Below, piece by piece: positions 991 through 11,032 of a stretch of 11,032 nt of DNA; positions within the stretch are counted from its first letter, which is position 1; each line of letters opens with the position of its first letter. The DNA is from Octopus sinensis (Eukaryota). Where the stretch lies: the NCBI RefSeq assembly GCF_006345805.1, contig NW_021827178.1, positions 1 through 11,032 of the forward strand. The letters are read 5' to 3'. Made by a program: the position numbers and the translations under genes. The notes beneath the pieces are model-generated. The model did no database searches. It worked only from the letters and a program-made list of their open reading frames with translations, and was not told the origin of the DNA.

Positions 991-1444
991 TTACTCTTTT
1001 ACTATTTTTACTCTTTTACTTGTTTCAGTTTATTTGACTGTGGCCATGCTGGAGCATCGCCTTTTAGTCGAGCAAATCTACCCCCCCCATGACTTATTCT
1101 TTGTAAGCCTAGTACTTATTCTATCGGTTCTCTCTTTTGCCGAACCGCTAAGTTACAGGGACGTAAACACACCAGCAGCGGTTGTCAAGCGATGTTGGGG
1201 GGGGGCAGACACAGACACACAAGCATATACACACACGTACATATACATACATACATTATATATATATATATAATATATATATATACACATATACATATAT
1301 ACGACGGGCTTCTTTCAGTTTCCGTCTACCAAATCCACTCACAAGGCTTTGGTCTGCCCGAGGCTATAGTAGAAGACACTTGCCCAAGGTACCACGCAGT
1401 GGGAACAATGTGGTTAGTAAGCAAGCTACTTACCACACAGCTAC
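991..1444 (-). mobile_element. tRNA-derived SINE family A, near full length, B-box deleted
   Basis: Reverse complement aligns along its length with 8226-8614: head TAGCTGTGTGGTAAGTAGCTTGC, internal TA/CA microsatellite at about 1207-1301, 3' end CCAGCATGGCC...TGAAACAAGTAAAAGAG with a short repeated tail at 991-1020. It lacks 11 nt covering most of the B box. Confidence 0.93.
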
Positions 1445-2747: not shown

Positions 2748-3062
2748 AGAAGGCAACGGAAAATTGCTCCAATATTCGTCGCAAGTCTAGTCAGAGTTGC
2801 CAACAACAAGAGCGGATAGGACTGCCACGTTGCGTTGGCGAATAGACTTTGCTGTACGGTGCCGTTACTACGTATTTCTTGCTCACAGATTTAAAACTAG
2901 TTGCTTTTCTATTTACGAGATCAGCGATTGTGTGTGGCTTTAAAAGTATACACTGTGAGCAAGAGCGAGTGGCTGCTATCTCTAGTACCGCCTAGTACCG
3001 CCGAATGGATATATTACCCAGAAACCATAGGTCTATTTGGATCATTCTGTTGGTATGAATAT

Positions 3063-3295
3063 AAGGCGGCGAGCTGGCAGAACCGTTAGCACGCCGGGCG
3101 AAATGCTTAGCGGTATTTCGTCTGTCTGTACTTTCTGAGTTCAAATTCCGCCGAGGTCGGCTTTGCCTTTCATCCTTTCGGGGTCGATAAATTAAGTACC
3201 AGTTACGCACTGGGGTCGATGTAATCGACTTAATACCTATGTCTGTCCTTATTTATCTCCTCTATGTTTAGCCCCTTGTGGGTAGTAAAGAAATA
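3063..3295 (+). mobile_element. tRNA-derived SINE family B, full-length monomer
   Basis: A-box-like TGGCAGAACCG (3075-3085) and B-box-like AGTTCAAATTC (3138-3148). Positions 3112-3295 match the 184-bp units at 10463-10830. Ends AAAGAAATA running into a TA tract. Confidence 0.92.
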
Positions 3296-8218: not shown

Positions 8219-8614
8219 AGGTGCAGGAGTGGCTGTGTGGTAAGTAGCTTGCTTACTAACCACATGGTTCCGGGTTCAGTCCCACTGCGTAGCATCTTGG
8301 CACCGTGTCTTCTGCTATAGCCCCGGGCCGCCCAATGCCTTGTGAGTGGATTTGGTAGACGGAAACTGAAAGAATCCTGTCGTATATATGTATATATATA
8401 TATATGTGTGTGTCTGTGTTTGTCCCCCTAGCATTGCTTGACAACCGATGCTGATATGTTTACGTCCCCGTTACTTACCGGTTCGGCAAAAGAGACCGAT
8501 AGAATAAGCACTAGGCTTACAAAGAATAAGACCTGGGGTCGATTTGCTCGACTAAAGGCGGTGCTCCAGCATGGCCGCAGTCAAATGACTGAAACAAGTA
8601 AAAGAGTAAAAGAG
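8219..8614 (+). mobile_element. tRNA-derived SINE family A, full length
   Basis: A box TGGCTGTGTGG (8230-8240), B box GGTTCAGTCCC (8273-8283), short internal TA/GT tract, 3' hairpin CAGTC-AAAT-GACTG and (TAAAAGAG)2 tail. Three other copies in the window. Confidence 0.95.
8230..8283 (+). promoter_or_regulatory. Internal RNA polymerase III type-2 promoter (A and B boxes) of SINE-A
   Basis: Near-consensus A box and B box with tRNA-like spacing (32 nt between them). Confidence 0.75.
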
Positions 8615-9259: not shown

Positions 9260-9479
9260 TAAGAAGCTTGCTTTCCAACCATATGGTCCCGGGATCAATC
9301 CCACTGCGTGGCACTTTGGGCAAGTATCTTCTGCTATGATCTCGGATGGACCAAAGCCTTGTGAGTGGATTCGGTAAATGGAAACTGAAAGAAACCCGTC
9401 GTATGTGTGTGTGTGTGCGTGTGTGTGTCTGTCTGTGTCTGTGCCTCTGTCTCTGTGTGTGTGTGTGTGTGTGTGTGTG

Positions 9480-9521
<42 letters not shown>

Positions 9522-9785
9522 GTCTGTGCCTCTGTGTGTGTGTGTGTGTGTGTGTGTGCATCATTGTGTCTATGTTTGTAACCCGCCGCCGCTTGACAAT
9601 CGACGTTGGCCTGTCTACGTCACCGTAACATCGATTCGGAAAAAGGAAACCGACAGAATAAGTACTAGGCTTTAAAAAATTAATCCTGAGGTCAATTTGT
9701 TCGACGAAGACCCTTCAAGGCGGTGCCTCAGCATGGCCGCAGTCAAATGACTGAAACAAGTAAAAGATGGAAGATAAAAGATAAG
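9260..9785 (+). mobile_element. SINE family A, older/divergent subfamily copy, A box missing
   Basis: Colinear with 8241-8614 but more diverged. The internal microsatellite is expanded (9404-9558, including (TCTG)10 at 9481-9520), there is an extra GACCCTTC before AAGGCGGTGC, and the tail unit is TAAAAGA. Confidence 0.9.
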
Positions 9786-9975: not shown

Positions 9976-10176
9976 CAGTGCTTTTCAACCTTTTTGCTAG
10001 AGCGGAACCCCAAGGAAACATTCCACTGGCTCGAGGAACCCCTGCGCAATAATTTAATAGTCTTATGCACACATATCTGCACAGGAGAATTAAAAATTAC
10101 TGCCGATTTTAGCAGTTTTGTAACTTCTTGCGGAACCCCTGGACTGTACTGGCGGAACCCTGGTTGAAAACCACTG
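9976..10176. mobile_element. 201-bp hAT (Charlie/Buster-type) MITE
   Basis: 15-bp TIRs CAGTGCTTTTCAACC / GGTTGAAAACCACTG (1 mismatch). 8-bp TSD ATTTAGAC (9968-9975) / ATCTAGAC (10177-10184), matching the NTCTAGAN preference. Four subterminal GMGGAACCC motifs. Confidence 0.92.
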
Positions 10177-10218
10177 ATCTAGACGCATGTATGTCTTATA
10201 CTTATTACCTGGGATAGA

Positions 10219-10308
10219 GGAGGAATTTGAACACAGAACCTAAACCCGAAAGAAAAGCCACTAAGCATTTTCTCCGGTGTGCCAACGATTCAGTCAGTTC
10301 GCTGCCTT
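10219..10308 (-). mobile_element. Diverged SINE-B head fragment
   Basis: Reverse complement AAGGCAGCGAACTGACTGAATCGTTGGCACACCGGAGAAAATGCTTAGTGG...TTCTGTGTTCAAATTCC aligns to 3063-3149. Confidence 0.8.
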
Positions 10309-10346
10309 AATAATGGGTTCAGTTTTAGGGAAGAGGAAAAGTCGAT

Positions 10347-10830
10347 GGGGTCGATAAATTAAGTACCAGTTACGCACTGGGGTCGATATAATCGACTTAA
10401 TCCGTTTGTCTGTCCTTGTTTGTCCTCTCTGTGTTTAGCCCCTTGTGGGTAGTAAAGAAATAGGTATTTCGTCTGCCGCTACGTTCTGAGTTCAAGTTCC
10501 GCCGAGGTCGACTTTGCCTTTCATCCTTTCGTGGTCGATAAATTAAGTACCAGTTACGCACTGGGGTCGATATAATCGACTTAATCCGTTTGTCTGTCCT
10601 TGTTTGTCCTCTCTGTGTTTAGCCCCTTGTGGGTAGTAAAGAAATAGGTATTTCGTCTGCCGCTACGTTCTGAGTTCAAGTTCCGCCGAGGTCGACTTTG
10701 CCTTTCATCCTTTCAGTGTCGATTAAATAAGTACCAGTTACGCACTGGGGTCGATATAATCGACTTAATCCGTTTGTCTGTCCTTGTTTGTCCCCTCTGT
10801 GTTTAGCCCCTTGTGGGTAGTAAAGAAATA
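10347..10830 (+). mobile_element. Head-to-tail array of headless SINE-B units: 2.63 x 184 bp
   Basis: Partial unit 10347-10462 and full units 10463-10646 and 10647-10830, near-identical. Each full unit corresponds to monomer 3112-3295. Confidence 0.95.
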
Positions 10831-10850
10831 TATATTGACTTTATGATTTG

Positions 10851-10990
10851 GCTGGTACTTTATTTTATGTACTCCGAAAGAACGAAAGGCAAAATTGATT
10901 CCACCGAGTTTTGAACACAGAACGTCAAGAAGCAAAATCTGTATATAGCAAGCAGAATATTTTTTCCGGTGTTCAAATAATTCAGCCAAA
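10851..10990 (-). mobile_element. Old diverged SINE-B-related copy
   Basis: Reverse complement contains ACGTTCTGTGTTCAAAA...TTTGCCTTTCGTTCTTTCGGAG...ATAAAATAAAGTACCAGC, colinear with 3130-3203. Confidence 0.75.
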
Positions 10991-11032
10991 TAAAACAATG
11001 CCAATTATTAGTGATAATGATTAGAAAAATAT

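Follow-up and report, generated by a model that had tools for sequence, protein, structure and literature searches.

Tandem arrays of an octopus SINE share a fixed junction at the landing site of a Tx1-like LINE

The stretch of Octopus sinensis DNA analyzed here (the window, 11,032 nucleotides) is a lone 11-kb contig that contains, at 10349-10830, a tandem repeat with a period of 184, 2.6 copies and 98% matches according to TRF (Table 1). The repeat unit derives from a SINE of which the window also holds a full-length monomer, and this monomer supplies the numbering used below, with 3061 as position 1 and 3112 as position 52; the label 'SINE-B' under which the initial annotation listed it is that annotation's own. 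In this numbering the array reads (120-235)(52-235)(52-235). Its two junctions are identical, AAAGAAATA being joined to GGTATTTCG at 10462/10463 and at 10646/10647, and GGTATTTCG is found in the monomer at 3112, so that the annotated multimer with a repeated, identical junction was borne out. Of the properties of a tRNA-type SINE, the family shows a short, non-coding sequence that is dispersed, present in high copy number and flanked by target duplications. The head has A- and B-box-like motifs, judged by eye against the consensus; the Rfam run covered the head-less array only, and ARAGORN reported no tRNA anywhere in the window.

Table 1. Coordinates of the array, its junctions, the monomer and the interrupted host element in the window.
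Feature	Position	Strand	Basis
Full-length monomer of the array's SINE, with A-box-like and B-box-like motifs in the head (by eye), a body and a LINE-related tail	3061..3295	+	
Head hairpin; landing site 3111/3112 at the 3' edge of the loop	3095..3124	+	in silico fold
Tail common to the monomer and the Tx1-like LINE (29/34 bases; ends approximate)	3260..3294	+	
Tail-side part of the older SINE interrupted by the array	10310..10346	-	
u0, 5'-truncated first unit, monomer positions 120-235, haplotype A129/T132/T199	10347..10462	+	
Junction 1, SINE 3' end fused to position 52	10454..10471	+	
u1, 184-bp unit without head (52-235), out-of-phase duplicate	10463..10646	+	
Junction 2, identical to junction 1	10638..10655	+	
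u2, terminal unit (52-235), haplotype T129/A132/C199, followed by target TATAT	10647..10830	+	
Older diverged SINE of the same superfamily, interrupted by the array: head-side part	10831..10980	-	

Several other repeats occupy the window. By eye, we noted at 9976-10176 a short element that has terminal inverted repeats and is flanked by an 8-bp duplication, the two copies of which differ at one base; we take it to resemble a hAT-type MITE. On the minus strand at 10219-10309, adjoining the tail of the SINE that hosts the array, lies the head of a further old member of the superfamily, which resembles the monomer at about 75%. A second abundant SINE-like family, with an internal microsatellite, is present at 1131-1404 (minus strand), 2153-2357, 8241-8608 and 9260-9770.

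Upon comparing the three units of the array, we found that the 3' part of u1 is identical to u0 (0 of 114 positions differ), while its 5' part matches u2, including the rare G85. Hence, u1 is an out-of-phase duplicate, which could have been made at the DNA level by slippage or through re-entry of the reverse transcriptase. The G85 variant (the TTCAAGTTCC allele) was indeed shared by the two full units, as first annotated, and it is rare in the family, with u1 and u2 among the 5 carriers in 291 units. At three sites u2 differs from u0 and u1 and has the other common allele at each; since u2 shares G85 yet differs at these three diagnostic sites, its 3' part comes from another template. The differences of the last unit had been regarded as private, a description that does not hold, because they are mostly majority alleles of the family: T129, A132 and C199, carried by 147, 148 and 157 of the 291 units, respectively. 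The duplication breakpoint falls between 85 and 129, close to the truncation point, with odd bases at 120-122. Such a coincidence of breakpoint and 5' truncation point did not appear to be a general pattern among the chains compared, as we found it in 3 of 26 truncated chains versus 5 of 51 head-bearing ones, or in 3 of 10 once the approximately 16 of the 26 that are LINE tails, by our own reading and among the output listed, are set aside.

The flanks of the array indicate how it arrived. When the array is left out, the two flanking parts of the older minus-strand SINE align without a gap or a duplication, and the array itself has no target duplication. As the flanks thus restore the older host SINE seamlessly, the locus is consistent with one insertion event in which a multimer RNA was copied, with 5' truncation, into a TATAT site, and we infer that this is how the array was inserted; its template was likely a multimer. 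The first unit begins at monomer position 120, in agreement with the annotated 5' truncation that is expected for reverse transcription from the 3' end. An inversion by twin priming that would involve the minus-strand head at 10219-10309 was considered and rejected, since the age of that head is far greater and the SINE restored by joining the flanks is another one.

The junction is family-wide. In the genome, the junction 20-mer had 31,591 exact matches and the reversed control had 0, such that the count at independent loci, suggested with the initial annotation as a check, established a junction that is fixed and not unique to the locus. Counts of 30,608 for an intact head 25-mer and 57,202 for SINE ends without G at +13 were obtained as well; the three numbers come from different patterns and give no ratio. 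The same back-joints occur in other sequencing runs, raw DNA reads included, the raw read alignment comprising 18 and 202 reads only. A one-off local duplication or an assembly artefact at the window locus would agree with the near-exact out-of-phase duplication of the middle unit and with the lone contig, for whose flank a search of the genome returned no second copy; it can account for the middle unit only and is refuted for the junction itself by the genomic count and by the other runs, which leaves it a next to negligible probability.

For a closer view of the junctions, we used a set of 113 loci (770 kb, with seven overlapping loci dropped) that were mostly picked by the exact junction, so that position 52 is over-represented in the following numbers: the loci contain 273 SINE chains, 159 of them with this tail, and of 234 tail junctions 202 lead to position 52, 9 to 49-57, 15 to 19-21, and 8 elsewhere. 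Target duplications of 11-23 nt flank many monomers. Two side observations were made. At L158-L186, an unrelated repeat that ends in long GAA runs is present in at least 40 copies with 95-97% identity. In sequencing run X23, 40 reads covering 3242-3295 return from 3295 to 3242 with a short piece of 52-64 in between, so that this sample may contain a satellite-like amplification of a unit shortened to roughly 70 bp.

In the monomer, position 3112 was described as lying in the loop of a hairpin, and folding placed it at the 3' edge of the loop: 3095-3107 pairs with 3112-3124 around the loop TAGC, with z = -3.3 relative to shuffles. At the paired positions 47 and 52, T-G occurs in 46 and G-C in 30 of 98 heads, possibly through one founder change. 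The junction, which was likewise described as an inverted repeat, is one in sequence but folds no better than shuffles (z = -0.07). These structures had led to the proposal that the hairpin loop is cleaved and the product ligated to a 184-nt circle that is reverse-transcribed repeatedly, or else that template jumping is guided by the junction hairpin.

If the template were a circle without the head, arrays should lack the head and consist of a single haplotype; since the arrays are mostly headed and mixed, we found the circle not to be supported. A head was present at the start (within the first 20 bases) in 96 of 117 arrays. Among the 80 arrays with at least two full units, 62 contain no unit pair sharing two rare alleles, 18 contain near-identical unit pairs by this rare-allele test, and in 5 at least two rare alleles are common to all units; 44 of the 48 two-unit arrays share fewer than two rare alleles. 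Within the window, too, u2 differs from u0 and u1 at common diagnostic sites. Comparing divergence within and between arrays, another check suggested at the outset, gave a discordance at diagnostic sites of 0.39 within arrays versus 0.45 upon permutation (2 of 1000 permutations), meaning that units of an array are more alike than chance would have it yet far from identical. The order of haplotypes varies between arrays, and in many of them the final unit carries another tail, of an older type. In favor of a circle, the junction is fixed at a loop edge, some long arrays are homogeneous, for example the seven units of L112, and the 3295-to-3112 back-joint appears in contigs of two runs guessed to be RNA, although genomic arrays give the same joint. 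The homogeneous long arrays L232, L082 and L112, however, contain higher-order repeats, which are a mark of DNA duplication. Homogenization of the satellite type by DNA-level duplication was indeed seen in a few arrays of 7-10 units, while the window's three-unit array and most dimers are not satellites. Against the circle also stands a second junction, at position 19, which follows the subfamily of the upstream unit, with C223 in 13 of 15 upstream units. Finally, a search of 10150-11032 against Rfam, in which minimal type I hammerheads could be missed, returned nothing at gathering level and no ribozyme at E up to 10, in line with the annotated lack of a hammerhead core in the unit. Within the scope of these analyses, the arrays show neither of two hallmarks of retrozymes, a self-cleaving ribozyme per unit and one-template, in-phase, head-less arrays. 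Overall, we consider the circle very improbable, and guidance by the junction hairpin is likewise not supported, given a position-19 junction that tracks the upstream subfamily and not the hairpin. Solo copies that insert at GGTAT-like sites outside any SINE, and a LINE that uses the same base although it has no 184-bp unit (both below), count against these proposals as well.

A LINE lands at the base at which the SINE units are joined. Upstream of locus L011 we found a 5.4-kb element encoding a zinc knuckle, an APE endonuclease and a reverse transcriptase (RT). Its ORF2 of 1134 aa comprises endonuclease, RT and zf-RVT, and natural full-length 1134-aa ORF2 frames are present in 6 of 20 LINE copies. 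The element has the arrangement of the Tx1 clade, with a zinc knuckle in ORF1 and an APE endonuclease and RT in ORF2, and the best-scoring informatively named homolog among 52 was the 'Transposon TX1 uncharacterized 149 kDa protein' at 31% identity. On the basis of this domain order and the one named homolog, the LINE appears to be Tx1-like; a homolog search with the LINE endonuclease fragment alone gave no matches. The flanks of L045 and L008 were considered as partner LINEs and rejected, each being an unrelated repeat interrupted by a truncated SINE.

The last 34 bases of the LINE match the SINE tail at 29 positions, which gives the SINE the 3' tail in common with a LINE that is typical of such elements. 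The LINE ends directly against SINE position 52/53 in 30 of the 30 best copies, one of which was assigned by reading across a short duplication at its locus. The same holds for 81 of 84 LINE-type ends scored by eye among the first 100 of 175 matches, and SINE 1-66 is found upstream of all 20 full-length LINE copies fetched; insertion was sequence-specific in all three of these sets, which overlap. A LINE that has no 184-bp unit hence lands at the same base as the SINE junction, and the LINE and some SINEs lie between a resident head and its continuation. The C or G at position 52 is concordant between the two LINE ends in 20 of 20 copies, and we found no link of this base to LINE body lineages (p = 0.21, 17 informative columns). 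Between the 5' and 3' copies of SINE 52-66 around the LINEs, 17 of 300 bases differ, compared to a difference of 0.54% among the LINE bodies. As these copies differ more than the bodies, the incoming RNA likely wrote part of the upstream copy of 52-66. Separately, we noted that the 3' flanks at L240 and L253, which belong to unlinked LINE copies, share a one-base deletion downstream, and that the 5' flanks at L246 and L250, again of unlinked copies, share A59 upstream, a hint that the LINE RNA may carry flanking sequence along. With its 0.54% the LINE is far younger than most junction units, which differ by 3-4% from the majority sequence, and it ends in a different tail variant; the enzyme was presumably supplied by this LINE lineage or an older relative.

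We found the last unit of an array to be commonly older than the unit before it. In arrays ending in another tail, the last unit was more diverged than the preceding one in 46 of 56 cases and less in 9 (7.6% versus 4.2%; p = 7e-7), although a mixture of subfamilies among the older tails may exaggerate this test; in same-family dimers, it was older in 15 of 27 and younger in 8 (p = 0.049). Last units comprise at least three older tail types, and their divergence is close to that of old monomers from the subfamily concerned (8.6% versus 9.5% for tail b). The duplications flanking other-tail arrays are more decayed than those at monomers, with 2.9 mismatches per 13 nt compared to 1.8 (n = 45 and 31, p = 0.016). 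The dimer at L146:1278-1710 has a heavily mutated head and an old last unit around a nearly pristine inner body; contigs of four related-organism runs cover its left flank and head (two of them ~7% diverged), one covers the old tail, and all break inside the SINE. A leading SINE fragment was kept in the same chain in 7 of 154 arrays, and at L036, L074 and L133 it reads as the resident head plus the duplicated target; that so few arrays keep one is at odds with plain nesting. So is the first head of other-tail arrays, which is mostly of the incoming type (T63 in 24 of 26, G47 in 8 of 26, C52 in 8 of 26), indicating that the resident head is usually overwritten or that a template switch made the join. 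Heads also did not carry significantly more mutations than those of monomers (p = 0.34).

A template switch would act in one step: cDNA made from one SINE RNA at a genomic nick would, on reaching GGTATTTC, base-pair to the 3' extension of another SINE RNA, which would then serve as the template. This predicts the same pattern of incoming-type heads, and it is in keeping with array heads that are mostly of the upstream-unit type, with one duplication flanking a whole array, with units from different haplotypes, and with 'Extra template' junctions reported at low frequency for R2 in the accessible part of PMC11331408. Against it stand last units that are about as diverged as old monomers and older than the unit preceding them, the more decayed flanking duplications, and the position of the LINE and some SINEs between a resident head and its continuation. 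Hence, we regard a one-step switch as unlikely.

We instead favor, with a probability of roughly 0.7, that the arrays arise when LINE-type target-primed reverse transcription inserts new copies into resident SINEs at position 52 and homology joins their 5' ends, each event adding 184 bp, and that the resulting multimers are then copied whole or duplicated as DNA. The observations behind this reading are the family-wide junction, the LINE landing site, the shared tail, the older last units, the mixed haplotypes, and the higher-order duplications in long arrays. Counting against it are the likeness of units within arrays, which exceeds chance, the 5 of 80 arrays with rare alleles common to all units, and the youth and different tail variant of the LINE. 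In the proposed sequence of steps, a nick would be placed at 51/52 of a resident SINE and reverse transcription would be primed on the 3' end of a SINE RNA, possibly aided by read-through bases. Reverse transcription would then proceed through the head, and the new head would anneal to the resident head, overwriting it, for a net gain of 52-235 (one 184-bp unit) that recreates the landing site. Head-bearing multimers may subsequently be read through by transcription and moved whole: a run of four T is the rule for termination of such transcription, and the units contain none.

The absence of a four-T run would equally serve a scheme in which a few multimeric masters arose once and all arrays are their retrotransposed copies, enlarged by DNA-level duplication, without ongoing self-targeting. 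Multimers flanked by one duplication do exist (the trimer of L086), the window array has no target duplication and leaves a restored host SINE when taken out, and the near-identical unit pairs in 18 of 80 arrays would be accommodated as well. By contrast, haplotype order that varies between arrays, last units of at least three older tail types, and a LINE that lands independently at the same base all speak against masters, as does the G85 junction, for which 0 of 21 other matches in the genome had the arrangement of the window array. We thus hold such masters to be quite improbable.

Solo SINE copies insert at GGTAT-like sites in ordinary DNA: their target duplication opens GGTAT-like in 9 of 29 copies (background 1.6%) and TATAT-like in 10 of 29 (background 5.0%). 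Among the first 100 ends listed, scored by eye, GG follows 28 of 66 T223 ends versus 0 of 34 C223 ends, and AG follows 14 of 34 C223 ends versus 4 of 66 T223 ends. Within arrays, 8 of 22 C223 units are followed by AGAAA (position 19), versus 1 of 186 T223 units. As the end extensions differ by the T223 or C223 of the upstream unit, the junction site is set by the upstream lineage and not by a cut of the downstream RNA. Tentatively, and at somewhat less than even odds, we suggest that the read-through bases (GGTAT, AGAAA or TATA, depending on the subfamily) constitute an inherited tag that pairs with the nick and steers lineages to position 52, position 19 or TA repeats; the LINE would land in its own passenger SINE, and each SINE insertion would remake the site, resulting in a self-reinforcing homing loop. 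At the last-unit ends of L136, L144 and L148, we additionally observed that an older tail joins other SINE heads around position 19-23 via terminal AGAAT-like bases; nesting by end homology is thus not confined to one subfamily.

Known systems offer partial parallels. The R2 enzyme is a restriction-like endonuclease that acts on rDNA, whereas the octopus LINE encodes an APE-type endonuclease and has a dispersed target. Yet the 'Anneal' 5' junctions of R2, in which cDNA with homology to the upstream target anneals and the shared sequence is not duplicated, form a precedent for the seamless 5' joining proposed here, as described in the accessible part of PMC11331408. For crocodilian SINEU and Tx1-Mar LINEs (Tx1L in Tx1D), the accessible part of PMC4494074 describes a SINE that shares the target preference of a Tx1-clade LINE inside another repeat, and it explains tandem SINEs by sequential insertion. 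The octopus SINE similarly shares its landing site with a Tx1-like LINE inside a repeat; there, however, insertion is into a DNA transposon, with a duplication enclosed between tandem copies, while the octopus elements use the passenger SINE itself as their target and form tandem units without a head. Alu, according to the part of PMC2836564 available, has a self-insertion hotspot at position 133, and in both cases insertion occurs in the sense strand at one base within the own family. Alu nests, in that account, keep both target parts and a short duplication, and L1 is not confined to the site, whereas the octopus junctions mostly show a seamless 184-bp gain and the LINE lands at the site in every one of its 30 best copies.

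In their product, the octopus arrays resemble the TSD1-(SINE)n-TSD1 arrays of the blood clam, with a headed first unit, head-truncated inner units and one flanking duplication, and the SINE-derived satellites of squamates, of which longer arrays are more uniform (PMC11481361 and PMC10702118, accessible parts). The origin given in those parts is unequal recombination or same-locus insertion, with no LINE target site named, and in the clam the inner units have lost part of the tail as well; the octopus junction, by contrast, is fixed at the LINE landing site in tens of thousands of places. The non-LTR retrozymes of animal genomes, as presented in the accessible text of PMC7229834, likewise form short tandem units (170-400 nt), with hammerhead ribozymes and circles, and differ from the octopus arrays, which lack a ribozyme match and begin with a SINE head. 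From octopus, tRNA-derived SINEs have been described as OK, OR1 and OR2 (Ohshima and Okada 1994, as cited in PMC4824008). The literature searched yielded no paper describing this octopus-type junction, although supplements, Repbase, Dfam or subscription papers may hold one, and the accessible text of a 2026 Octopus repeat annotation (PMC13282606) gave no hit for 'nested' or 'satellite'. Compared to the known systems, the octopus case differs in the use of the passenger SINE itself as a target and in the seamless gain.

The idea of a circular RNA would be the more surprising one if true, and it is unlikely. If insertion at the LINE landing site is indeed how the arrays form, it would explain how a dispersed SINE can give rise to tandem arrays by the tens of thousands, through a fixed landing site and homology-joined 5' ends followed by DNA-level expansion, and the origin of SINE-derived satellites would become testable at named sites. 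With its full-length ORF2 frames and narrowly defined target, the young LINE lends itself to nicking and integration assays of the standard kind.
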